A stretch of DNA of 64,000 bases. It comes from a virus. This document shows positions 14,901-56,378 of this stretch, piece by piece (position 1 is the first letter of the stretch; the number at the start of each line of letters is the position of its first letter). The DNA lies in the IMG/VR virus record IMGVR_UViG_3300049595_004364, positions 3,322 to 67,321 of that record; one strand, 5' to 3'. The position numbers and the translations under genes were made by a program. The notes beneath the pieces were generated by a model. That model saw only the letters and a list, made by a program, of their open reading frames with translations. It did no database searches and was not told the DNA's origin.

Positions 14901-15224
14901 TATGAAGTTAAGTACAATAAACCTGACGGCTCTCTTACTATAATTGATGTACCAAAAGACTCAATTTATTATGAGCTAAAAAATGCGCCAGAGGGACTAC
15001 ATAATTTTTCAATTCAAGCTGTAAGTAATACGGGTCCCGTATCAGTATCAAAAATTTCTAGTATTGTAGTATCAAGGGATAATTTTGTGCCCGGAGTATT
15101 TAAACAGTCGTCCTTGCTAAAAGGAGGAGTATTTAATAAAACTATATCCTTCTCTGGTGGAACCCTTACAACTCCTAGCACCTATACATTTGTAGCACCT
15201 TCGGGGGCTCAGAAAGTTTTATAA
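11955..15224 (+). CDS. Tip attachment/central fibre protein J (gpJ / T5 pb3-like)
   Basis: 'DLISEGPI', 'NNPVW', 'RYCDELVPDGKGGLEPRFTC', C-terminal FN3 domain. Confidence 0.92.
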   Translation: MRYYKNSTGIVFDLISEGPISLVNGLNSIYLNRRPIANASLGRAALGGPALVFLNNNGSSIYLGEQRLGIGTEIPILIKKAAKQSTTTVVAGAFTINAASFFTSNMLASNSDGDGGLYQKVRIPGAGVGGEEYEGEILSISGNIATMDTPIGTSITGPVYWDHFTYGIEFNNNGVYSITLNVAAANSTFWNANFTPPSSNWTSVEAIIGAGRLNINADNTSLNFKDVKVNFRNGAANQPPVINTTGFSSASYGINLNAELTQVTTAIQEDGTSVAIYNNKTNPWWTSDSIGEVQPESGGSVFVLNTGSGANGLNIGSPSEVDEVVITINTPEGLYGIKENEDQSKTNAGAVFQVFLKYKVNAAADWQRKLILGPSKEALTASTGYFVHNQGALRNGGNYSGVLKAEVDSAVNFDFRINLQEFRPFDNFEIEIYKITPDRFKVGKWTYFQKTVVTSAQAYVHDKLSYPYSAYAAIEFDSQEFQGNIPERAYHCYGVDMDLPTNYITREESANGIANYNRSGGVDTGVYQVWNGTFRRGYCNNPVWNLREILLNNRWGLGNWLTADQINKYSLYSLARYCDELVPDGKGGLEPRFTCGVYLTQSTEAYKVIKDFATTMLALPYWVDGEFILEGDRPAEPVYTFTKGNIEGGIFSYEGTGNRTRANQIAVTFNDKDNFYEQSVELIDDIDNIVSTNRLITEEVVAFGATTRSQAIRYGKWKLLTAKLQKELVSFKTGENAGYLKPGSVINIQDADRDRVRYSGRVVSATTGQVTIDKPVTLNVGETYQLHVFVSGSATYLLQETAIIGGISYSYGNILPIYTEAEAEVLRDDSNNPVSVQFSPDSHLQTRTITSSVGSVLNVESFTAAPESEVIWAITAKNNTGTLVGSPKTYRILGIGEDNNSYTITAVEHFNAKFDSIDEDYLADPPEYVRRYTEVPSVTNFTATLQFNSEGISEANSSVTPNIVLSWDPPVENGTIYSDFNRYEVKYNKPDGSLTIIDVPKDSIYYELKNAPEGLHNFSIQAVSNTGPVSVSKISSIVVSRDNFVPGVFKQSSLLKGGVFNKTISFSGGTLTTPSTYTFVAPSGAQKVL

Positions 15225-18200
15225 TGAGTTTTACTAGTTTAGATTTTACAAGTATGGGTTCAAATGCCTATATTGTTTATAATGTTGACACTGGCTTTAA
15301 GCTTCTAACAGAAGTGTTAGACGGGCCTGTTGCTTACTTATCGGATGGTGCAGCAGTATCACTTGGTAACTGTTATATGCAGGGACCCGTACTTACGACA
15401 CTAACAGGGTCTTTTTCTACACTTAGCAGTAGAGATAGACCTATTGTAAAAGTCGGGTCTTCTTGGGCAGTAGTAACGCAATTTTTGGATAATTCTAATG
15501 TTGTTTTAGATAGAACGTTTGATAAAGGTAGACTCTGCACTATACTTAGTGGTACAGTTACTACTGTAAACAACTATACTGCTGGCACTGCAATTACCTT
15601 TGAAAGCACTGGTGTACTACCCACAAATATTACAGCGGGTCAAATTTATTATGTTTTAACTGCAACTACACAAACTTTTACGTTTAGCGCTACTGTAGGT
15701 GGGTCTGCTATAACTACGTCAGGAGGGTCTGGACTTCATTCTGTTTATAGAGTGTTTAGCGCTATTACGCCTTCTTATGCCCCAGATACTATAAAAGACA
15801 CTATTATTGCTACTGTTACAAAAACAGGCACAAGCCCTAATTTTGTATACAATATAGACCCTTACTATTCAGTTAATAATGAGTCAACCACTATTATTAC
15901 TACTGTTACTGCTCTACCTGTATCAGGAGAGTACGTAGGTCAGTTAGTACTATTTACTAACCTAATCTACACTTGGAATGGAACTAGCTGGGTTACTTCT
16001 TACGGAGAAGATGGGGCTACCGTAACTTTAACGACCTCAAGCCAAGCTTTTACATACACTACAAGCGGAACCACACCTACTCCTGCATCTGCAACTATTA
16101 CTGCAAACGTATTAAATGTAACTAATCCCCAGTACAGATTTCTTCTAAACGGCAGCGAAGTTCAGGCTTGGGGAATTACGCCTAACTACCCTTATACACC
16201 TCAAGCTAACTTTACTAATATGCCTGACTTAATAAAGGTAGAAGTTAGAGAAGGTACCGGCTCTGTTATAGCTTCTGATATTTTAAGTACTTTTGGCGTC
16301 AAACCCGGAGAGAACGGAGATGACGCTGTAACAGTGATAATGACTAATGAAGCGCATACTTTAGCTAGAGATGGTGCTTCTGTTGACTATAGTAACTCTG
16401 GTACTTCATTTATTGTATATATTGGCACCACTGTTTGTGCTTTTGGAGCTTCTGGTGCATATACCTATAGTGTATCTGCTACTAACAATAATATAGTTGC
16501 CGCAACTCCTACTAGTGGTGTCTATGGAAATGCTAGTGGACTTGCAACGGGAGTACTTTCGGCAACTATTACATTTACTATCACTATACGCGGACCGGAT
16601 GCACAAATATATGCTACGGTGACTAAAGTACAAAGTTTTTCCGTTTCCGAAGCGGGTAGAGATGTGCAAGTTTCTACCGGAGCTACAGCTCCTTCTAGCC
16701 CAAGTACAGGGGATATATGGTACAACGGTGACGTAGCTTTTTATTACAATGGCACTGTTTGGGTACAAATTGTTAATGCCCCCACAGGTACCAGAAGTTT
16801 ATCTTCGCTATCTGATGAGGGTATTTATACTGGTGAAATTGCATATTATTCTGGGGATTATTATATTTGGGACGGTGCTCTGTGGCTATTAGCAATTGAT
16901 GGAATAACTTTAGCCTTATCTAATCAAACTCATACGCTACCAGCTAGTTCTGCTGGTGTTCCTAGCACTTATGTAGGGGCTAGTACAAGGGTTTATGTTT
17001 ATTCCTCTGGAACCGACGATACAGCTAATTGGACTTTAAGTGCTTCTACTACCAATGTTACCGGCTCGTTTGGGTCCGGTGCTAATAGTAATCTTTATAC
17101 TGTTACTAACTTGTCACAGCCTGCAGGATTTGTTGATATAACGGCAACTAAAGGTTCAAGAACTAAAACAGCTAGATTTAGTTTAAGCACTTCTAATGCA
17201 GGAACTAACGGAGTTGCAATTAGACTAAGAGGCAACGTTCTTGCTGTTAAACAAAATAATAGTGGTGGACGTTCCCCTGGTACTATAATATTTAAAGCAG
17301 AAAATGTTTCTTCTTCTGGGGTTACTACTTACACCGGAGATATAAAAATAGAAAGCGGTACCAATGGTACAGTTTTTGGTACAAATCACGGAACAGTTAA
17401 TGGTACGGAGTCTTCCTTAGACATAACGGGTTCGAGCAATACATTTTTTAGAGGTATACTGTACGTTACGGGTACCTCAACCATTATTGACGAGCAAGTT
17501 ATTTCAGTTATATCTGATGGCTTAGACGGTAACTCAGGTGGAACGGTATCTAGATTAGATCTATCGAACGATAGCCACTCTATTCCAGCAACTTCTGATG
17601 GTACTGTACTATCCTACGATGGTGCAGATACAGAGCTACGAATTTACAAGGGGCAAGCTTTAGACACTGGGTGGACATTTTCTGAGATTTCGGAAACTAA
17701 CGTTTTAGGCTCTTTCCCAGGTAGCAGTTCAACCTCTACAGCAAACCCCGCTGTTTGGACAGTATCTAGTTGGAACGGAACGGCTGATGTAGCCTATGTA
17801 GATTTTCAAGCGACAAAAACTGGGGAGGCTACACAGTATGCGACTTTTAGCTTAACAAGAGTTAGAGGAGGTGCAAATGGAAGCAGCCCCACGGTATATA
17901 AGTTAGTACTTTCTAGGAATTCTGTAATAAAAAACCCTTCAGGTGTATTTACTCCAGCCTCTTTAACTTTTTCTGCTGTAAGCATTACTGGAAATAACTT
18001 GCCTGTATCTTATGCAGGCACTATAAAGTATCAAATTGATACTGGTAGCGGATTTGGCTCCGAAATTACAGGCACTTCTTACACACCAAGTGGTAACGTT
18101 AGAGATATAAAAGTTAACTTATACGATGGAACAACTCTACTAGACTCGGAAACTATACCTGTTATTGTAGACGGACCTCCTGGAATAAATACCGCTACTA

Positions 18201-20599
18201 TTAGCTTATATAACAAAAATACAAGTGCTGTTACACCTCCAGCTGCATTTACTGGCACTGCAACTTATACATTTGCTACTAGTGCAGTTACAGGGCTAAC
18301 CTTAAATGGGTGGTCTACAAGCGTACCAGCTATAGCTAACGGAGAGTACTTGTGGGTTAGGCAAGCGGTAGCGTCTTCTAATGTTGCTACCGATGATATT
18401 GCAATTGGTGAGTGGTCTGGTGCTGTTGTACTGTCAAACGGAGGCATAGATGGGTTGAATACAACACCTTTATTTTTATACAATAAAAATACAAGTGCTG
18501 TTACACCTCCAACTGCGTTTACTGGTACTGCAACTTATACATTTGCTACAGACTCTCTAACTAATCTTACCTTAAATGGTTGGACACGTACAGCGCCTTC
18601 TTTAATTGCCGGAGAGTACCTGTGGGTTAGACAAGCAGTAGCGTCTTCTAATACTGCTACTGATACCATTGCAATTGGAGAGTGGTCTGCAGCCGTAGTA
18701 GCAGGAGTAGCAGGTACTAATGGGCCCGCTGGGTTAAATAATACCACTATTAGCTTATACAACAAAAATACAAGCGCTGTTACACCCCCAACTGCGTTTA
18801 CTGGTACTGCAACCTATACATTTGCTACTAGTGCAGTTACAGGACTAACTTTAAATGGGTGGTCCACAAGCGTGCCAGCCATAACTAACGGAGAGTACTT
18901 ATGGGTTAGACAAGCAGTAGCATCTTCTAATACTGCTACTGACACTATTGCAATTGGTGAATGGTCTGGGGCTGTTGTGCTTTCAAATGGGGGCATAGAT
19001 GGGCTAAATACAACGCCTTTATTTTTATATAATAAAAACACTAGCGCTGTTACACCTCCGACCGCATTTACAGGCACTGCAACTTATACTTTTGCTACAG
19101 ATTCATTAACCGGTCTTACTCTTAATAGCTGGGCACGAACTGCTCCTTCTTTATCCGCAGGAGAATACTTATGGGTTAGACAAGCGGTAGCATCTTCTAA
19201 TACTGCTACTGATACTATTGCAATTGGAGAGTGGTCTGTAGCAGCAGTAGCAGGAGTAGCAGGTACTAATGGACCTGCTGGACTAAATAATGCTACCATT
19301 AACTTGTATAATAAAAATACAAGTGCTGTTACACCCCCAGCTGCATTTACTGGTACTGCAACTTATACATTTGCTACTGCTACAATTACAGGGCTAACCT
19401 TAAATGGATGGTCTACAAGCGTACCAGCCATAACTAACGGAGAGTACTTATGGGTTAGACAAGCAACAGCGTCTTCTAGTACTGCTACTGATGATATCGC
19501 AATTGGTGAATGGTCTGGTGCTATTGTGCTTTCAGTTGGGGGTACAAACGGTACCTCTGCAGTGAGTGGCTATCTAACTAATGAGTCCCAAGCTTTATTT
19601 GCATATGCTAATGGAACTATTACTTCTTATACACCCGCTACAGGGTCTTTTGTTATAGTGAGTGGTACCACAGATATTAGTGCTAGCTTTACATTGTCTA
19701 CTCTCTCAAACCCACAAAACTTAACTGTTGCTTATGTTAACAGAACCTATACGGTTAGTGCGGGGTTTGATGCAAACGAAGATACAGCAAGTTTAACTAT
19801 AAGGGCTACAGGGTCTGGTGCTTACGCAGGCATTACTATAGATAAAGTTTTTTCTTTATCTAAAACTAGAGGTGGGTATGAAATTGTCGCTACTTTACCC
19901 GCAGGAGGAGACCCTAGAAATTTTGCAGGTAGTATAGTTTTTCTAACTACAGATAATAAGCTTTATAGATATAATGGCACAGCATGGGTAGCTACTGTCC
20001 CTGCTGGAGACATAACGGGCCAGTTAATTGCTGCTCAAATTGCTTCGTTGGCCGCTTCACAGGTTACTGGTCAGTTAACTGATGCTCAGTTGGCGGGTAT
20101 TGCAGCAGCTAAACTTACTGGCACGATAGCAAACACACAAATAGCAGATGGGGCAATATCTACCGCCAAAATAGCTGCGGGAGCTGTAACTGCCGCTAGT
20201 ATTGCTGCAGATACTATTACGGCCGCTAATATTGCTGCTGGTGCAATTACTGCATCTGAACTTGCGGCTGGATCTGTTACCGCCGCTAGTATTGCTGCTG
20301 GTACAATAACTGCTACTCAAATTGCAGCTGATACTATTACAGCAAATCAAATAGCAGCTAATGCTATTACTGCAACCGAGCTCAATGCTAATGCGGTTAC
20401 AGCGGATAAAATAAATGCTGGGGCTGTAACAGCGGGTAAAATTTCTGTCACAGAACTTAGCGCAATTAGCGCAAATATGGGTACTGTTACAGCAGGCTTA
20501 ATTCGTAGTGGGACAGGCGGAGATAGAACAGAAATAACACCACAGCGCATAGAGGTATATGCAGGCGGCACTTTACGTGTTAGATTAGGAATATGGTAA
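15224..20599 (+). CDS. Large tail fibre/receptor-binding protein with tandem repeats
   Basis: 1791 aa, Ser/Thr/Gly-rich, 'L(S/T)NE(S/A)H' modules, five ~90-aa repeats, C-terminal 'ITA..IAA' repeats ending 'RVRLGIW'. Confidence 0.85.
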   Translation: MSFTSLDFTSMGSNAYIVYNVDTGFKLLTEVLDGPVAYLSDGAAVSLGNCYMQGPVLTTLTGSFSTLSSRDRPIVKVGSSWAVVTQFLDNSNVVLDRTFDKGRLCTILSGTVTTVNNYTAGTAITFESTGVLPTNITAGQIYYVLTATTQTFTFSATVGGSAITTSGGSGLHSVYRVFSAITPSYAPDTIKDTIIATVTKTGTSPNFVYNIDPYYSVNNESTTIITTVTALPVSGEYVGQLVLFTNLIYTWNGTSWVTSYGEDGATVTLTTSSQAFTYTTSGTTPTPASATITANVLNVTNPQYRFLLNGSEVQAWGITPNYPYTPQANFTNMPDLIKVEVREGTGSVIASDILSTFGVKPGENGDDAVTVIMTNEAHTLARDGASVDYSNSGTSFIVYIGTTVCAFGASGAYTYSVSATNNNIVAATPTSGVYGNASGLATGVLSATITFTITIRGPDAQIYATVTKVQSFSVSEAGRDVQVSTGATAPSSPSTGDIWYNGDVAFYYNGTVWVQIVNAPTGTRSLSSLSDEGIYTGEIAYYSGDYYIWDGALWLLAIDGITLALSNQTHTLPASSAGVPSTYVGASTRVYVYSSGTDDTANWTLSASTTNVTGSFGSGANSNLYTVTNLSQPAGFVDITATKGSRTKTARFSLSTSNAGTNGVAIRLRGNVLAVKQNNSGGRSPGTIIFKAENVSSSGVTTYTGDIKIESGTNGTVFGTNHGTVNGTESSLDITGSSNTFFRGILYVTGTSTIIDEQVISVISDGLDGNSGGTVSRLDLSNDSHSIPATSDGTVLSYDGADTELRIYKGQALDTGWTFSEISETNVLGSFPGSSSTSTANPAVWTVSSWNGTADVAYVDFQATKTGEATQYATFSLTRVRGGANGSSPTVYKLVLSRNSVIKNPSGVFTPASLTFSAVSITGNNLPVSYAGTIKYQIDTGSGFGSEITGTSYTPSGNVRDIKVNLYDGTTLLDSETIPVIVDGPPGINTATISLYNKNTSAVTPPAAFTGTATYTFATSAVTGLTLNGWSTSVPAIANGEYLWVRQAVASSNVATDDIAIGEWSGAVVLSNGGIDGLNTTPLFLYNKNTSAVTPPTAFTGTATYTFATDSLTNLTLNGWTRTAPSLIAGEYLWVRQAVASSNTATDTIAIGEWSAAVVAGVAGTNGPAGLNNTTISLYNKNTSAVTPPTAFTGTATYTFATSAVTGLTLNGWSTSVPAITNGEYLWVRQAVASSNTATDTIAIGEWSGAVVLSNGGIDGLNTTPLFLYNKNTSAVTPPTAFTGTATYTFATDSLTGLTLNSWARTAPSLSAGEYLWVRQAVASSNTATDTIAIGEWSVAAVAGVAGTNGPAGLNNATINLYNKNTSAVTPPAAFTGTATYTFATATITGLTLNGWSTSVPAITNGEYLWVRQATASSSTATDDIAIGEWSGAIVLSVGGTNGTSAVSGYLTNESQALFAYANGTITSYTPATGSFVIVSGTTDISASFTLSTLSNPQNLTVAYVNRTYTVSAGFDANEDTASLTIRATGSGAYAGITIDKVFSLSKTRGGYEIVATLPAGGDPRNFAGSIVFLTTDNKLYRYNGTAWVATVPAGDITGQLIAAQIASLAASQVTGQLTDAQLAGIAAAKLTGTIANTQIADGAISTAKIAAGAVTAASIAADTITAANIAAGAITASELAAGSVTAASIAAGTITATQIAADTITANQIAANAITATELNANAVTADKINAGAVTAGKISVTELSAISANMGTVTAGLIRSGTGGDRTEITPQRIEVYAGGTLRVRLGIW
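18180..19550 (+). repeat. Five tandem intragenic repeats in A-B-A-B-A order (270/279 bp)
   Basis: The 'YNKNTSAVTPP' coding unit recurs at about 18211, 18481, 18760, 19030 and 19309. Confidence 0.95.
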
Positions 20600-44391: not shown

Positions 44392-47300
44392 TTAGTAGAA
44401 AACTAGTTGCCTGAAGTTTTCTACAGCAGCTTTGCGGTTAACCCACAAGTATTTTAGTCCATCTTTAGTTTTAAACACTTCCATCATATTACCGATACCG
44501 GCGGTACCAGCAAGATATGGGAACACGCCAGCTCCTTGAATCATGAGGGTATTTAGATCTAAATAATATACCCGGTTTGTAACATCTCTTGTAAAATAGA
44601 TTCTGTCTAAACCATCATACGCATAAGAACTTCCTGTTGATAGTAATTCAAAGTTTGGTGTAATAGAAGTAAAATAAAATAAATCATCAGTTAGATCTAT
44701 TCTATCTACACCAATTGCAGTTGATCCCCTAAATCTATAAAGATTCCTGCCTCTATTTGCAGGAATTGTACTATTTGCGTTCCACCTTAAATGGCTACCT
44801 GTTCCTGGTACAATTGTAGGTAGGATTGAGTATGTAGAAACAGCAGTCAATGCTGCTACGGCAGTTGCAAAAGTTAAAGTTCCCGTTCCAGGAGTTACTG
44901 CTGTAATTGGTAAATCCTGATTAGCTCCCGTTGACGTAGTAATTCTTAAACGTCTACCAACAAGACTTTGAGCGCTCCAAGCGGTAAATGTTATTGTACC
45001 AGAAACAGCACCTGTGTGTGGTGTATCAACTGTAATAGTTGTTGTACCACCACCACTAACTACCCTTGCACCAAGAGCAATTCCTGTTCCTGAAACAAAC
45101 CAACCATTATGAATAGGGGATCCAATAGCACTTAATGTTATTGTTGTACCAGCACTAGCTCCTGTTCCAGTTGCTGTAGCCCAAAAACTATTAGTATCAA
45201 CAAGTGATGTGACAGCCTGAGTTCCTAGGGCTACTCCAGAGAGATAATTTAACCTTTGTCCAGCGTAGTGTTGTCCTATCATATCTCTTTTTGCTATGAC
45301 ATATCTGGTTACACCCGCTACTGCACCTGCTAAGGCACCAATGGGGGTCATTATAGACCCATTAGCGGTATTTTGTGCTACAAGTTGCATGTGAGTTCCT
45401 GCACCTAATAAACCTGTTGCTGCTGCTGCGGGGGCAGCCGCTTGTGCGTAAATCATGGCTGGAACTTGAGTCGGGGCATAGAATGTAATTGTGCCAGCAG
45501 GTGTTCCTGATGTGGCCGTAGAAAGTACAAGTGTATTTGTACCGGCACCACTAACTACAGTTGTTCCGTTGGCTATATTAGTACCTGAAACAGACCAGCC
45601 AGTAATATAAGTAGGGGTATTACCACTAAGTACAATTGTAGTACCAGTTCCAGAACTATAAGTAGCTGTAGTTGGAAGAGGCAAATTAGTTGGGTGACTT
45701 AATATAAGAGTACCTGCTACTGTACCAGAATTTTGAATAGATACGTTTGGAGTTGTTGTACCTTCTCCTCCAGTAATATAAGTACCTATACCAGTGTTTG
45801 TTGCTGATGCTAGCCAACCTTTACAGTAGCCAGGAATAGCCTGTGCACTAGTAAAAGTAAAAGTACCCGCACCGCCACCTGATGGGGTGCCTAACGACAC
45901 CGGTCTTGGGTACTTTGTGAATACAATAGTACCAGAGGGAGTTCCTGCTCCTGTTAAGTTAAATGTAAGTGTGGTTGTTCCGGCGCCACTTTGAACTTGA
46001 GCGCCTGCAGCAACGTTAGTTCCATAAGCATACCACCCATTAATATTTGATGGAGTAGCTCTGGTAAATGTAGCTGTTGTTGTAGAACCGCCTGTTGTAA
46101 GATCCGCAAAATGTTTTGAAGCATCTGGTAAAACAGAAACGCCAAGAGTTACGTTTTCAGAATATTGATATGTACCAGTTCCAGCAGCATTTGGGGTATA
46201 CGTAAATGTTGTAGTTGAAGGTACAGTAGCAATTTGAACTTTTCCTGTGACGTTATACACGTCAGCGGCGGCAGATGTTACTCCACGAATAGAAACCCAC
46301 TGTCCAACTTTTAACATATGCGGCTGAGCCGTTGTTGCTGTAATTGTTGTTGTACCTGCTAATCCAGTAATCGCAATAGGTTTTTGTTCTGATATAACAT
46401 GCGTTGCTGTAGAAGTTCCATCTGTTGGTAATGCACAGGCAACCTGTAAAGTACCTTCGTCTAAAATCCTACCATGAGATATAAGGTTACAATCAGCTGC
46501 ACGATATAAAAATGTTTCAGAATTATTACCTACTAGCGCTACCATGTCATCTGTGTAAGCTTGTATTACGTATATAGAGGTAGAGTCTGGTTGAATATTC
46601 CAAGTATCATACAAAACGATACTATCGGTTCCATTAGACATAATCTGTCTCATTTGACCATCGCCTGTTCCTGCTATGATACGAAGACCATAGTTAGCCC
46701 AGCGATTTACGTCCCATGTTTTTGTAGAATCACTAACTATTCTACCAACTGAAGATGTTAATGTACCGGCATCATAACCTATAATGCTATATCTACTAGT
46801 GCTATCTGGGGCAGTGCTTAAAGTACTCGCAAGAGTTAAAACTGTTCCTGTATTACTAGTAATAGCAGAAATTTGTGCTCTTCCTGTTCCGGTCCAGATA
46901 AACACATAATAACCAGCCCACTGATTAGTGGTCCAACTAGCTGTTGCGTCTGTAATAGTTGTTGTAGTTCCTGCTGTGGCTTTTCCTGTGTACCAAATTG
47001 AAGAATTTTCGGTAAATCTTTCTAGAGAAAGATCTGTTGCAACCACAGGAATACTACTATTGTTAATAGGTTTTGAGTACCAAACATCTTCAAGAACGCT
47101 ATAATATTGTAAGGTTATACCACCTAAAGCAACTGTTGCGCCCGACGCAAGCCAAATGCCACCAGATTGAATAACATAACGCGAAGTATTATCAGGAATA
47201 ACAGTCCAGGGGGTGTCTACTGTAACAGTATGTGCTTCGATTTGATACTGCGTGCCCGCTGCTAGTGCAACACCAAATCCTGCTGTACCCGCTGTCTGAG

Positions 47301-47934
47301 ACATGGGCATGGCATTTCCATCCCAAGCAAGAACAGCCGGGTCTGCAACTGTTAATACGGTGCTAGTATTATATAAAATTTTACGTGCAGAATTTAAACC
47401 TGTACCACCCGTAGTACGAGCAACATAGCCTATCCAGTTATTAACCGGCCAAGCTTTTGCCGCGTCAGTTAAGCTTACTGAACCCACGGCAGAAGCACCG
47501 CCCCAATCTGCTACAGTTGGATCTGAGACAGAAGTAATAATTCTTTCCTGTCCAGCTCCTCTGCCAGATATAATACGAATTCTAAATCCCACAGCAGCTC
47601 TGTTAGGAAGTCCTGTTGTAATTGTTGTTGATGTTCCACTAATCACACGACCATAATAACCTTGAGCACCTGCAAATTGCATTGATGACGCAGTAAGAGG
47701 TGTAATACCCGGGGATGCTAGCTGCTGATAAGAATCCGCAACAGTATCATAACGCCAAAAGTTAGTGGCGTTTAACAGTAGGTAGACAAATCTACCAGAA
47801 ATTTCATTGAAGTCTACATTGTCAGCATTGCAAACGCAGGATAAACCAGCAGTTGCTACCACAGGAAGGGGTCTTGTCCACTCCCAGACTGGCAAATCAA
47901 CTTGCTTAACTAATTGATTAGATACAAGTGCCAT
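44392..47934 (-). CDS. Large virion fibre/adhesin with Kelch-like ends and internal repeats
   Basis: 1180 aa, Thr/Gly-rich; 'W..N.W.GY...GTG.GQ...I.SNT...PD.TS.Y.I' and 'GW.(V/A).GT...G..V.SG.GT' repeats. Confidence 0.75.
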   Translation of the reverse strand: MALVSNQLVKQVDLPVWEWTRPLPVVATAGLSCVCNADNVDFNEISGRFVYLLLNATNFWRYDTVADSYQQLASPGITPLTASSMQFAGAQGYYGRVISGTSTTITTGLPNRAAVGFRIRIISGRGAGQERIITSVSDPTVADWGGASAVGSVSLTDAAKAWPVNNWIGYVARTTGGTGLNSARKILYNTSTVLTVADPAVLAWDGNAMPMSQTAGTAGFGVALAAGTQYQIEAHTVTVDTPWTVIPDNTSRYVIQSGGIWLASGATVALGGITLQYYSVLEDVWYSKPINNSSIPVVATDLSLERFTENSSIWYTGKATAGTTTTITDATASWTTNQWAGYYVFIWTGTGRAQISAITSNTGTVLTLASTLSTAPDSTSRYSIIGYDAGTLTSSVGRIVSDSTKTWDVNRWANYGLRIIAGTGDGQMRQIMSNGTDSIVLYDTWNIQPDSTSIYVIQAYTDDMVALVGNNSETFLYRAADCNLISHGRILDEGTLQVACALPTDGTSTATHVISEQKPIAITGLAGTTTITATTAQPHMLKVGQWVSIRGVTSAAADVYNVTGKVQIATVPSTTTFTYTPNAAGTGTYQYSENVTLGVSVLPDASKHFADLTTGGSTTTATFTRATPSNINGWYAYGTNVAAGAQVQSGAGTTTLTFNLTGAGTPSGTIVFTKYPRPVSLGTPSGGGAGTFTFTSAQAIPGYCKGWLASATNTGIGTYITGGEGTTTPNVSIQNSGTVAGTLILSHPTNLPLPTTATYSSGTGTTIVLSGNTPTYITGWSVSGTNIANGTTVVSGAGTNTLVLSTATSGTPAGTITFYAPTQVPAMIYAQAAAPAAAATGLLGAGTHMQLVAQNTANGSIMTPIGALAGAVAGVTRYVIAKRDMIGQHYAGQRLNYLSGVALGTQAVTSLVDTNSFWATATGTGASAGTTITLSAIGSPIHNGWFVSGTGIALGARVVSGGGTTTITVDTPHTGAVSGTITFTAWSAQSLVGRRLRITTSTGANQDLPITAVTPGTGTLTFATAVAALTAVSTYSILPTIVPGTGSHLRWNANSTIPANRGRNLYRFRGSTAIGVDRIDLTDDLFYFTSITPNFELLSTGSSYAYDGLDRIYFTRDVTNRVYYLDLNTLMIQGAGVFPYLAGTAGIGNMMEVFKTKDGLKYLWVNRKAAVENFRQLVFY

Positions 47935-50084: not shown

Positions 50085-50436
50085 GAGTTACCCTTGGTGT
50101 AAGAGAAATTCTTCCCTCCATAGCTCTTGTTATATCTCCCCCAACTTTAGTGACTAAAATATCAAAAAAATATGTTGTGGGCTCAATTGCTATTGTATCT
50201 GCTGGTAGTAAAGTAAAGCCAAAAATCCAAGTATCTTGTTCTAAAAAAGCTTTACCATTAGCTAACGTACAATCTATAGCGGGTACAGTTTCTTCAAATT
50301 GTTTACGTAACTGGGCTCGAATAGTGGCTCCAGAAAGGTTTATAGGATTATTACTACTGTCTAGATAACGCATCTTAATAGGATACGTTACGCCTTGAGG
50401 TATGATAAAATCCCTTTTAACTGGTTCGGCAATCAT
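50077..50436 (-). CDS. BppU-like fibre attachment/adaptor protein
   Basis: 'I.QG.T...D...PINLSG...AQLR...Y.FDI...TR..EG...TP.VT' pattern. Confidence 0.7.
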   Translation of the reverse strand: MIAEPVKRDFIIPQGVTYPIKMRYLDSSNNPINLSGATIRAQLRKQFEETVPAIDCTLANGKAFLEQDTWIFGFTLLPADTIAIEPTTYFFDILVTKVGGDITRAMEGRISLTPRVTHG

Positions 50437-50469
50437 GTTATCTCCAACGACGTATCTTAATACGCAATT

Positions 50470-50498
50470 AAGGCTGAAAGCTACCGCTTTCAGCCTTT
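50470..50498 (-). terminator. Strong hairpin downstream of the tRNA pair
   Basis: AAGGCTGAAAGC-tacc-GCTTTCAGCCTT, 12-bp stem. Confidence 0.6.
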
Positions 50499-50507
50499 TA
50501 AAAAATG

Positions 50508-50601
50508 TGGTGCCCCCGATAGGATTCGAACCTATGACGCTCTCTAATCTGGAGACGATGCTGGATATAAGCCAGGTGTTTTACCTCTAAACTACAGGGG
50601 C
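50508..50601 (-). tRNA. tRNA with anticodon UAU (nominally Ile) and an atypical long variable region
   Basis: GCCCCTG/CGGGGGC acceptor stem, D-arm GTTT/AAAC, CTGG-CTTATAT-CCAG, ATAGG-TTCGAAT-CCTAT, encoded CCA; 94 nt. Confidence 0.85.
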
Positions 50602-50602
50602 T

Positions 50603-50690
50603 TGGCGGTAGAGGTAGGATTCGAACCCACGGTACCGTTAGGTACATCTGTTTTCAAGACAGGAGCCTTAAACCACTCGGCCACTCTACC
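50603..50690 (-). tRNA. tRNA-Ser(UGA)
   Basis: GGTAGAG/CTCTACC acceptor stem, CTGT-CTTGAAA-ACAG, long V-arm, G73, CCA. Confidence 0.95.
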
Positions 50691-50820
50691 CTTTTTTCTT
50701 TTCCCATATAGAATAGCATATAGCTACTGCCTGGTCTTTTGGTTTACCTTCTTCAATAATGACAGGTATACAGCGAGCTACAAACTCTTCCTTAGTTTCC
50801 TTTTTTCTAGGTTTAGGCAT
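50686..50820 (-). CDS. Small conserved phage protein (44 aa)
   Basis: MPKPRKKETKEEFVARCIPVIIEEGKPKDQAVAICYSIWEKKKG; its stop lies inside the tRNA-Ser 5' end. Confidence 0.65.
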   Translation of the reverse strand: MPKPRKKETKEEFVARCIPVIIEEGKPKDQAVAICYSIWEKKKG

Positions 50821-51202
50821 AAAATATATGGTCCTTAATCTTTTTTACTTTTCGTTTTTTACTAGCCCATCCTGGGCTAACGTAGTCGGCGTGGAAGTGT
50901 GTTGCTGAAATTCTATCAGAACTCAGTAAGGAATGAAGCGCTACTTCTTTTGCGCGGCGCCATGCTTTTCCTTTTGGTTTTTCACTTACGTTTCCTACCC
51001 AACTAAATTGGTTTTTTTGCTCTACTACACCACAAATAGTATCGGGCCATCTAGGGTCTTCTACCCTATTAAGCGTAACATCAGCTACTGCTAGCTGTCC
51101 CTCGATGGGTTGGTTACGAGCCTCATAATACACATTTTGTGCGAGACAATTAAATTCTGTTGGTGCAAAGAGCATAACTAGGGACAAGATCATGTCCTTC
51201 AT
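50813..51202 (-). CDS. SleB/Hydrolase_2 cell wall hydrolase
   Basis: 'CLAQNVYYEARNQ...AVA.V.LNRV....WPDTICGVV.Q..QFSW...THFHA...P.W...HIFY'. Confidence 0.93.
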   Translation of the reverse strand: MKDMILSLVMLFAPTEFNCLAQNVYYEARNQPIEGQLAVADVTLNRVEDPRWPDTICGVVEQKNQFSWVGNVSEKPKGKAWRRAKEVALHSLLSSDRISATHFHADYVSPGWASKKRKVKKIKDHIFYA

Positions 51203-51291
51203 GTTACCTCCTTATAAGGGGCGAGGGTTTCCCCTCGCCAAATAGTAACCCCCCGGTATTGCGCTATAAGGAAGCGTGGGGGGTGTTGTTA
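51203..51291 (-). promoter_or_regulatory. Structured leader of the hydrolase gene containing an anti-SD element
   Basis: Two GC-rich hairpins; CUUCCUUAUA is complementary to the RBS UAUAAGGAGG. Confidence 0.6.
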
Positions 51292-51633
51292 TTAAAATAG
51301 TGAAGCAAAATACTGTGCGGCTTTGCCCGTAAGCTTAGAAATAACTTCTTCGTTAACTTCTTTGCCCGCTGCTTCCAGCTTCTCAATAAGAGAGGCATGA
51401 GCAGCTTCTTTGCTAACGCGAGTACCGCTAGCTGCTTTTTTCTCTTTACCAGGGCCAGCTGACTTGGTGATATATACCCCAGCTTTGCTGAGAATCATAC
51501 GAACACTGTTTGGGGAAAAGCCTAGCTCTGCTCCTACATCCCCAACAATATCCATTGATGTTTCGGGTGTGGGCTTAGCTTTGAGATACATTGCTACAGC
51601 TTCTGCTTTTAGTTCATCGGTCCAAGTTGCCAT
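51292..51633 (-). CDS. T5 D3-like protein
   Basis: 'WTDE.K...PTPETSMDIV...SPN.VRMIL.KAGVY...KLTGKAA.YF'. Confidence 0.8.
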   Translation of the reverse strand: MATWTDELKAEAVAMYLKAKPTPETSMDIVGDVGAELGFSPNSVRMILSKAGVYITKSAGPGKEKKAASGTRVSKEAAHASLIEKLEAAGKEVNEEVISKLTGKAAQYFASLF

Positions 51634-55544: not shown

Positions 55545-55739
55545 TTACGGCGTAACTTCAGTTACAACTTCTTCAGTAACTTCAGTGGGGATTTCAGCCA
55601 CAACTTCTTCGGCTACAGCTTCCGCTACAACTTCTTCAGCTACAACTTCCGTTACAACTTCTTCAGCTACAACTTCTTGAGTAGGCTCAGCACAAGCGGC
55701 CAGTGCAGCCAATGCGGCTACTGCAAATACAAATTTCAT
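55545..55739 (-). CDS. Small acidic lipoprotein with EVV(A/T)E repeats
   Basis: Lipobox LAAC; 15-bp repeats; AGGAG RBS. Confidence 0.8.
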   Translation of the reverse strand: MKFVFAVAALAALAACAEPTQEVVAEEVVTEVVAEEVVAEAVAEEVVAEIPTEVTEEVVTEVTP

Positions 55740-55757
55740 TTTTTCTCCTATGGGTTA

Positions 55758-56080
55758 AGCGGGTCCGTTCTGTTGCTAGGTGGAACCCATACCCCCGAAA
55801 ATTAAGCGGCTAGCGCGTAATCCTCAACAATGCTGTTATCGTTTGCATTTATAACGTTTGATCTTTTAGGGAAATCACTCCCAGTTGTCCACTATCGTTG
55901 TTCGTCTGTCGAAACTATATCTGGCCCATCAAATATATACTACTGCGCTACATCCACATGCGCGTACTTATGACTCCATGCTTCCAACCACTCTGGAGTA
56001 CCCTTTGGGTAGGGTAGTATATATTTGGTGGACCAGCTGGGTACTGCCCCCAGGTCCAAATCGACTTATTGTCGCTTCAT
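55758..56080 (-). ncRNA. ssrA: Circularly permuted (two-piece) tmRNA
   Basis: Acceptor piece ends CTGGG-GGCAGTA-CCCAG-CTGGTCC-ACCA (CCA at 56028-56026); coding piece starts GGGCCAG at 55927, giving the G3:U70 pair; tag ANDNSIVEDYALAA* at 55846-55802; outer ends approximate. Confidence 0.95.
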
Positions 56081-56378
56081 ACAACTATATCTTCTCTAGG
56101 AACAATTCCAAGAGAGGATTGCTGGTTACTAATTACTACGTTCATAGCTATATCAGACGAATCTTCTACAGTACATAGAATTAGTGCAATACTATCTATT
56201 GCTTTAACTATATCTTCTTTATCTAGACCAAGTTTACTTTGGTGGATAAATAGTTTGTGAGAGAAGTTCGCGGCGTACTGAGCGTACACCGCGTTCATCA
56301 CATGCAGTTCCTGAGCTAGCTCATTCACTTCTGCCGGCCAAGCCGACGGATTACCTATAATTTCTTTTAGCATATTAC
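56077..56378 (-). CDS. Hypothetical protein
   Basis: Probable start MLKEII at a TAATG overlap with the upstream gene. Confidence 0.55.
56085..56112 (-). promoter_or_regulatory. Probable tmRNA promoter
   Basis: TTGGAA-16-TATAGT just upstream of the acceptor piece. Confidence 0.5.

Follow-up and report, generated by a model that had tools for sequence, protein, structure and literature searches.

A long-armed tRNA-Ile(UAU) family of phages and tRNA gene arrays with a conserved GAU at the tip of the variable arm

The window analysed here (a 64-kb stretch of DNA from a 67,321-bp record classed as linear and about 65% complete) holds three RNA genes according to ARAGORN, all on the minus strand: tRNA-Ile(tat), tRNA-Ser(tga) and a permuted tmRNA. 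The isoleucine gene, tRNA-Ile(UAU), occupies 94 nt (50508..50601, minus) and matches Rfam RF00005 at 61.1 bits (gathering score 29); covariation over 51 distinct relatives supports it as well. One nucleotide upstream lies tRNA-Ser(UGA), 88 nt long (50603..50690, minus; ARAGORN, and Rfam at 55.9 bits). These are the two tRNAs of the record, a genome search giving no third in its 67 kb; relatives of the tRNA-Ile(UAU) are found in arrays of as many as 37. Starting 12 nt past the CCA of the isoleucine tRNA is a perfect inverted repeat of 10 bp around a 4-nt loop (GGCUGAAAGC-GGUA-GCUUUCAGCC; 50472-50495, minus). It is without a T-run and might serve the Ser-Ile pair as a terminator or as a processing hairpin; a promoter/terminator scan of 50300-51300 found no site resembling a promoter, and the minus strand gave no hits. 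The tmRNA (55711-56142, minus) is of the permuted, two-piece alpha type, scoring 113.1 bits with the Rfam model tmRNA_permuted and 108.8 bits with alpha_tmRNA, and its tag peptide according to ARAGORN is ANDNSIVEDYALAA. A phage tmRNA of this kind may hint at a host with a two-piece tmRNA.

PHROGs matches in the window include a tape measure, major tail protein, central tail fibre, family A DNA polymerase, RNR, SbcC and DnaB, and the DNA polymerase shares 43-44% identity with the enzymes of T5-like phages, among them Erwinia phage KEY and Klebsiella phage Sugarland. Near-identical DNA is present in lake and freshwater metagenomes from several studies; the contigs of two that were examined match without differences. 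The functions assigned among the ORFs scanned with PHROGs and Pfam are tail, replication and lysis, and no partner RNA enzyme was found among 10 large ORFs (PHROGs) and 10 neighbouring ORFs (Pfam). An 1180-aa ORF (44392-47934, minus) has no match in PHROGs or Pfam, and a 1791-aa ORF (15224-20599, plus) has a weak PHROGs match to a family of unknown function. In the 69 ORFs counted, which together span 91% of the window, 489 of the 1359 isoleucine codons are ATA (36%), or 25 per 1000 codons. A preliminary description of this DNA had proposed a TilS-independent AUA decoder suited to an ATA-rich genome, a proposal supported by this codon use and by the UAU anticodon, for which no lysidine is needed.

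The tRNA-Ile(UAU) has the features of the elongator tRNAs of RF00005: cloverleaf, GG D-arm, U33, purine at 37 and GTTCRA T-loop. Its acceptor stem is GCCCCUG/CGGGGGC (7 bp, with a GCC start), the acceptor/T branch is 7/5 with T-arm AUAGG-UUCGAAU-CCUAU, the D-stem GUUU/AAAC has 4 bp around a 7-nt loop (AGAGGUA), and the 3' end carries A73 and an encoded CCA. The anticodon UAU (50567..50569, minus; ARAGORN anticodon position 33) lies in the loop CUUAUAU, with U33 and A37, on a stem CCUGG/CCAGC that leaves a C27.C43 mismatch. As far as can be read from the sequence, the isoleucine identity elements are present (UAU, A73, C4:G69, U12:A23). Where the gene departs from class I tRNAs is the variable region, which has 24 nt (50536..50559, minus) and a covarying stem in place of a short loop of 4-5 nt: an AU spacer, a 6-bp stem with one bulged G (CGUCUC/GAGA(G)CG), the 7-nt loop CAGAUUA (50545..50551, minus, with G-A-U at 50549..50547), and then U47 and C48. 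The minimum free energy fold agrees with this hairpin, Infernal locates all the additional nucleotides in the variable region, and the Rfam alignment takes in the entire gene except for 20 nt, assigned to the same region.

A 94-nt tRNA with a UAU anticodon and an extra arm was what the preliminary description had reported, and ARAGORN, the RF00005 score and covariation bear it out; the strand, which it had left unstated, is minus. The anticodon loop, the C27:C43 mismatch, the variable region of about 24 nt, A73 and the GCC start can likewise all be read in the sequence; of the variable stem-loop it gave as CUC-CAGAUUA-GAG, the loop stands and the stem has six pairs, not three. Its suggestion of a Leu-like body is ruled out by the D-arm architecture, which is that of class I (4-bp stem, 7-nt loop, G15/C48). 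More generally, the anticodon UAU, A73, the 4-bp D-stem and the 7-nt D-loop set the gene apart from the class II tRNAs for Leu, Ser and Tyr. When the arm-less body was compared with 2910 distinct tRNAs, class I tRNA-Ile(UAU) came nearest, with Thr and Arg only slightly behind; a length filter kept class II tRNAs out of this comparison, which is not counted as evidence.

Relatives were sought in IMG/VR with patterns that fixed different parts of the gene. With the window's anticodon arm and T-loop fixed and the spacer left free (scan 1), 31 loci were found: 21 have the same 28-nt spacing, and 10 the ordinary spacing of 8-9 nt. Among the 21 long copies and the window (22/22), positions 8-66 are identical save for D-loop position 16; where the acceptor and T stems vary, both partners of a pair change. 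Since arm-less phage tRNA-Ile(UAU) exist, as the 10 ordinary-length loci show, the arm is not needed by every UAU tRNA. Most of these 10 share the anticodon stem and are also mismatched at 27:43 (U.C or C.U). A second scan, with only the D-arm and CUUAUA fixed and the arm free, gave 86 stretches; the complete copies, including the window, number 85 and comprise 51 distinct sequences, and beyond them are one copy cut at the end of its locus and one that is interrupted (L085). In the interrupted locus, the 5' half of a long-armed tRNA-Ile(UAU) of the main lineage (minus strand, about 1900-1960) ends right after the anticodon loop, and an intact 96-nt tRNA(UAU) of another long-armed type, with a GGAC tip, lies about 190 nt beyond (1713-1808, minus); the arrangement looks like a gene-replacement scar.

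In the 51 distinct sequences, the cloverleaf and variable-arm positions are 94.8% paired, compared with 76.1% after shuffling (none of 500 shuffles reaches the observed value), and pairing drops to 36-53% when the 3' partners are slid by 1 to 3 columns. Each of the five helices is 76-100% paired. Double changes occur in 7/7 acceptor pairs and 4/5 T-stem pairs, with a constant core. With compensatory changes in its acceptor and T stems and a fixed core, this is evidently a real tRNA under selection. A73 and UAU are present in 51/51, encoded CCA in 50/51 and C4:G69 in 42/51; U12:A23 is also found in 51/51, although here the D-arm was set by the search pattern. Position 27:43 is unpaired in 50 of the 51. 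The same design was found in at least 119 viral contigs, and the tRNA-Ile(UAU) of the window thus belongs to a large and apparently undescribed family.

The variable arm itself is 96.4% paired among the 51 distinct relatives, with three of its six pairs changed on both sides: pair 56:70 is UA in 42, GC in 8 and CG in 1, and pair 58:68 is UA in 32, CG in 9, GC in 8, AU in 1 and UG in 1. Its tip carries G-A-U in 51/51, the loop having been no part of the search pattern. Column by column, the seven loop positions are C (49) or U (2), A (50) or C (1), G (51), A (51), U (51), U (49) or A (2), and A (49) or G (2). A third viral scan fixed only CUUAUA, the T-loop and a spacing of 30-46 nt between them and gave at least 117 stretches, of which 109 loci were examined; among the matches listed, ARAGORN called 60 long tRNA-Ile(tat), 54 of them distinct. 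In these 54, among the matches listed, the tip is GAU in 53 and GAC in one, the 53 including two CAGAUAA loops that were misfolded by RNAfold and read by eye. The loops around it vary, again among the matches listed (CAGAUUA, UAGAUUU, CCGAUUA, CAGAUAA, AGAUG, AGAUC, UAGAU, GAU), so it is the GAU that is conserved and not one given loop. Counting from the loop, the third pair is C:G in every one of the 138 distinct members whose loop has 7 nt (138/138); the closing pair is CG in 112, GC in 25 and GU in 1, and the second pair GC in 65, UA in 60, AU in 9 and CG in 4.

A further scan asked for GAC anywhere in the arm and served to find relatives, so that no frequencies are taken from it. It recovered sister lineages with loops such as GAGACU, GCGACG and GGACG, some of them with unusual D regions. 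Other lineages of phage tRNA(UAU) with odd D regions were seen in L238, L254, L260, L261, L289, L294, L256, L269, L284 and L291, and have AGAUG, GGACG or GGAC at the tip of the arm. Within the 64-kb window, the sole other match to the hairpin motif has 3 mismatches, which is chance level.

The GAU arm is tied exclusively to the UAU anticodon. The CAGAUUA variable loop and the T-loop are found together with U34 in at least 119 viral stretches, and with a wobble A, C or G (C-U-[A/C/G]-A-U-A) in none; the latter pattern demanded C32 and the former took C or U, C32 being present in 160 of the 185 listed. Long-armed versions of other class I isotypes are rare: Cys 7/88, Asn 4/105, Lys 3/96, Met 1/199 and Ile(GAU) 1/96 distinct sequences, in a comparison of 3590 ARAGORN tRNAs that is indicative only, the loci having been picked for holding a tRNA-Ile(UAU). 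The inserts in these other isotypes end mostly in GNRA tetraloops. A general rule that variable-region inserts copy the anticodon was rejected on this account, and a single Lys(UUU) insert with the loop UUUA is probably due to chance. Helical inserts, mostly GNRA-capped, also appear now and then in Trp, Lys, Cys and Thr tRNAs of phage arrays; examples of tRNAs with inserts are L001 5801-5889, L009 7524-7608, L011 6448-6533, L006 5647-5728 and L030 4947-5034.

Outside the viral contigs, the motif was found in 38 stretches of bacterial and archaeal contigs from a set with one genome per species, one of which (L109) is an evident chance match. Of the 38, 24 are on contigs titled Acidobacteriota (Pyrinomonadaceae or Blastocatellia), and the remainder are mostly from marine or freshwater proteobacterial, Bacteroidota and Melainabacteria MAGs; these non-Acidobacteriota contigs may be binned phage DNA. 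The Acidobacteriota copies lie on large contigs, within arrays of 11-26 tRNA genes. In one Acidobacteriota genome, 20 of 63 tRNA matches are in a 3.3-kb array; the other 43 are dispersed outside it, and the array is therefore an accessory set. TilS scores above the cut-off in 5/5 Acidobacteriota genomes, and the idea that the long-armed tRNA replaces a lost lysidine pathway there was accordingly rejected. Arrays swap arm architecture in both directions, with Leu lacking the arm and Ile(UAU) having one: tRNA-Leu of only 73-78 nt, with no long variable arm, occur in three Acidobacteriota arrays (L113, L118, L129) and in Lactobacillus phage LpeD (L097). The phage arrays of the fetched loci also contain five tRNAs with the amber-reading anticodon CUA, labelled "Pyl" by ARAGORN, which may be suppressor tRNAs.

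Five cultured phages have the design. Lactobacillus phages LpeD and Lpa804 both carry the loop CAGAUUA, in stretches whose annotation, as examined, has CDS features only and leaves the tRNA unmarked. Levilactobacillus phage ENFP1 (loop AGAUG) and Acinetobacter phage vB_AbaS_qsb1 (loop CAGAUAA) have it annotated as tRNA-Ile, as does Lactobacillus phage 3-521, which is included on the basis of a BLAST match alone and not of its arm sequence. The preliminary description had allowed that this might prove to be an already catalogued, ordinary Ile-charged phage family: it is widespread, and it is labelled tRNA-Ile in three GenBank phage records, but ordinary it is not.

In its most secure part, the best reading makes the tRNA-Ile(UAU) a working, TilS-independent AUA decoder in an ATA-rich phage, and its extra arm a functional, sequence-specific element. 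Judging from sequence and comparison, the tRNAs of this family are probably charged with isoleucine. What might the arm do? In the available text of the Mycoplasma mobile study (PMC3575796), the efficiency with which E. coli IleRS charges tRNAIle2(UAU) is 1.1% of that for the LAU form, the wobble base is read by the C-terminal Zn domain of IleRS, and M. mobile IleRS is altered (Arg865) to use tRNAIle2(UAU). The determinants of E. coli IleRS, in the accessible portion of PMC9976931, include G34/A35/U36, A38, C29-G41, A73 and C4-G69. A role as a handle for IleRS is proposed because U34 makes a poor IleRS substrate and a phage or an array can alter the tRNA, not the host enzyme, and because the arm shows GAU, has A as the final nucleotide of its loop and includes a C:G pair like 29:41. 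A38 of the true anticodon loop is present in 45 of the 185 listed long-armed UAU tRNAs, compared with 72 of 81 tRNA-Ile(GAU). With hosts in Lactobacillus, Acinetobacter and Acidobacteriota, and no tRNA enzyme nearby in the window, a universal host protein is the likely reader.

Assuming that IleRS is this reader, the mechanism might be as follows. The elongator tRNA would read AUA as isoleucine in this T5-like freshwater phage with no help from the host's TilS, its UAU loop, with U33 and A37, decoding on the ribosome. The hairpin would be retained in the mature tRNA as a sequence-specific recognition handle and would give IleRS the anticodon-type determinant, G34 above all, that is missing from a U34 anticodon. 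In the 7-nt-loop form, the invariant C:G third pair would mimic 29:41 and the A at the last loop position A38; it is conceivable that the tip brings the missing G to the C-terminal Zn domain. Aminoacylation identity would in this way be uncoupled from the decoding anticodon. Contact between IleRS and the arm is conceivable since LeuRS, also of class Ia, has a flexibly linked C-terminal domain that touches the long variable arm of tRNALeu, in the part of PMC3561953 available. An isoleucine-charged AUA decoder whose arm stays in the mature tRNA as an IleRS recognition handle is the best explanation overall, held tentatively and at less than even confidence. The narrower proposition that IleRS reads the arm likewise falls somewhat short of an even chance, and the fully two-headed tRNA, with UAU read by the ribosome and a non-decoding pseudo-anticodon, the GAU arm, read by IleRS, is a possibility to be put more cautiously still.

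Several observations stand against IleRS as the reader: the docking geometry, flanks unlike those of an anticodon, the GAC tips and the occurrence of phage tRNA-Ile(UAU) that lack the arm. In the complexes of class I synthetases, the variable side of the tRNA points toward the solvent, so the tip of the arm would be out of reach of the IleRS anticodon pocket, barring unusual docking or a swinging C-terminal domain. The arm loop has A or C at the equivalent of U33 and mostly U at that of A37, and in some members is only 3-5 nt long; with such flanks and loop sizes it copies an anticodon loop only imperfectly. The GAC-tipped minority (1 of 54 in the third scan, among the matches listed, and several more in the GAC scan) does not carry an isoleucine anticodon. 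C29:G41 is present in just 43 of 81 genuine tRNA-Ile(GAU) anticodon arms from the same loci, so that the invariant C:G of the variable arm need not reflect IleRS.

These points leave room for the arm to be a handle for some other universal factor, whether a modifier of U34 or the anticodon loop, an enzyme that it excludes, or a tRNA nuclease for which it acts as decoy or shield; we regard this as rather unlikely, and as the most serious of the alternatives. The tip is sequence-specific and tied to UAU, and its GAC variants and non-anticodon-like flanks suit an N-G-A-Y motif better than a copied anticodon. A second problem that such a factor could address is that tRNAIle(UAU) misreads AUG on E. 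coli ribosomes, as given in the available text of PMC3575796. However, it would then be a coincidence that the tip equals the cognate major anticodon in 53 of 54 (among the matches listed), and no candidate gene was found near the tRNA in the window with PHROGs and Pfam. A literature search gave no enzyme or nuclease of such specificity, and we know of none. Another possibility is that the arm is a functionless structural insertion, tolerated and conserved only through recent ancestry or exchange between arrays. Variable-region inserts are indeed tolerated in other isotypes of phage arrays, and the core is near-identical in many copies (22/22), but the GAU stays while the arm stems, loop length (3 to 7 nt), D-arm type and acceptor and T stems change, and it persists across phages of Firmicutes and Proteobacteria and the Acidobacteriota arrays; the inserts of other isotypes, moreover, bear GNRA loops. 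This makes a neutral insert improbable.

Recoding of AUA by a tRNA charged with Leu, Ser or Val, in turn, would fit the long variable arm, A73 (also the Leu discriminator) and the resemblance of the GAC-tipped relatives to a Val anticodon, and it has a precedent in nematode nev-tRNA (PMC3333845, as far as the available text goes); recoding with Ser has been proposed for allo-tRNAs. It is nevertheless very unlikely: the D-arm is of class I with G15/C48, the branch is 7/5 and there is no G73 for SerRS; ATA makes up 36% of isoleucine codons in ordinary phage genes, those for polymerase, RNR and tail proteins among them, and replacing the residue throughout would carry a high cost; and GenBank pipelines assign isoleucine. 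Least likely of all, and hardly to be credited, is that the extra 18-24 nt are an intervening sequence cut out after transcription to leave a 76-nt tRNA. The preliminary description had noted that deleting 18 nt restores a perfect 5-bp anticodon stem, and the arithmetic holds (76 nt, CCUGG/CCAGG), but not the meaning attached to it: the mismatch is conserved in 50/51 relatives and is also seen in short relatives, and conversely 27:43 is paired despite the arm in other lineages (GU 41, CG 28 and AU 17 of 186). Its companion suggestion of a processed insertion finds no support either, the arm covarying and sitting at the same place in every relative and the C.C mismatch being conserved and not made by the insert. 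The arm is flanked as in class II tRNAs, by a 2-nt spacer on one side and U47 C48 on the other. The insert lies in the variable region and is far below the length of a group I intron, and we know of no bacterial splicing system for such an insert. Metatranscriptome contigs from two libraries of two studies cover the tRNA (50288-50608 and 50367-50566); both hold the variable arm intact, with no joint reported within the tRNA, and differences at 50534 and 50520 jointly turn a T-stem U:A pair into C:G. Being contigs only, from RNA libraries that may contain DNA, they point weakly to the presence of the arm in RNA.

If the arm is a synthetase handle, it would represent a new way to write tRNA identity, with the cognate anticodon copied onto the variable arm. 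Phages and mobile arrays could then decode AUA in any host, with neither TilS nor an adapted synthetase, which would account for an AUA decoder of mobile elements working across phyla, and synthetic biology would have a ready means of releasing an IleRS substrate's anticodon for use in codon reassignment. Regardless of mechanism, the family is common (hundreds of contigs), and in GenBank phage records it is unannotated in some and plain tRNA-Ile in others. A full-text search found no paper that describes a conserved variable arm in a tRNA-Ile(UAU) of phages or bacteria; the supplements of Mukai et al. (Fig. S5) may show related sequences. Cultured Lactobacillus phages carry the family, and it is directly testable there.

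Among known systems, the canonical class II tRNAs (Leu, Ser, bacterial Tyr) share with the phage family a helical variable arm between the anticodon and T arms. In the Ser, Tyr and some Leu systems this arm is read by the synthetase, by shape, and has non-conserved loops of 3-5 nt; the phage family, in contrast, has a conserved loop that matches the cognate anticodon, and a different D-arm. We know of no conserved GAU tip in nematode nev-tRNA(UAU). That tRNA is similar in combining a class II shape with the isoleucine anticodon UAU, but it is eukaryotic, with a Leu-type body, and is charged with leucine, according to the available portion of PMC3333845.

The allo-tRNA(UAU) of Mukai et al. (2017; PMC5389517, in the sections accessible) likewise have a long variable arm and UAU, are common in Acidobacteria and metagenomes, and are associated with mobile contexts; they are the commonest allo-tRNA group, and none of six UAU species tested was active in E. 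coli. Allo-tRNAs differ, in the same sections, in having an 8/4 or 9/3 branch, a long D-stem with a tetraloop, and G73 or U73 with Ser identity (PMC5389517), whereas the phage tRNA has A73, an ordinary GG D-arm (4-bp stem, loop AGNGGUA in the family) and a 7/5 branch, in which the 7 acceptor and 5 T pairs covary. The tRNAIle2(UAU) of M. mobile (PMC3575796, as far as its available text describes it) resembles the phage tRNA in its UAU anticodon, its reading of AUA with neither lysidine nor TilS, A73, a class I D-arm and an A37 for t6A. It has a short variable loop, however, and there the charging problem is solved on the enzyme's side, by Arg865 of IleRS; the phage tRNA, by comparison with this part of the M. 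mobile account, has a 24-nt, GAU-tipped arm and must suit whatever IleRS its host provides.
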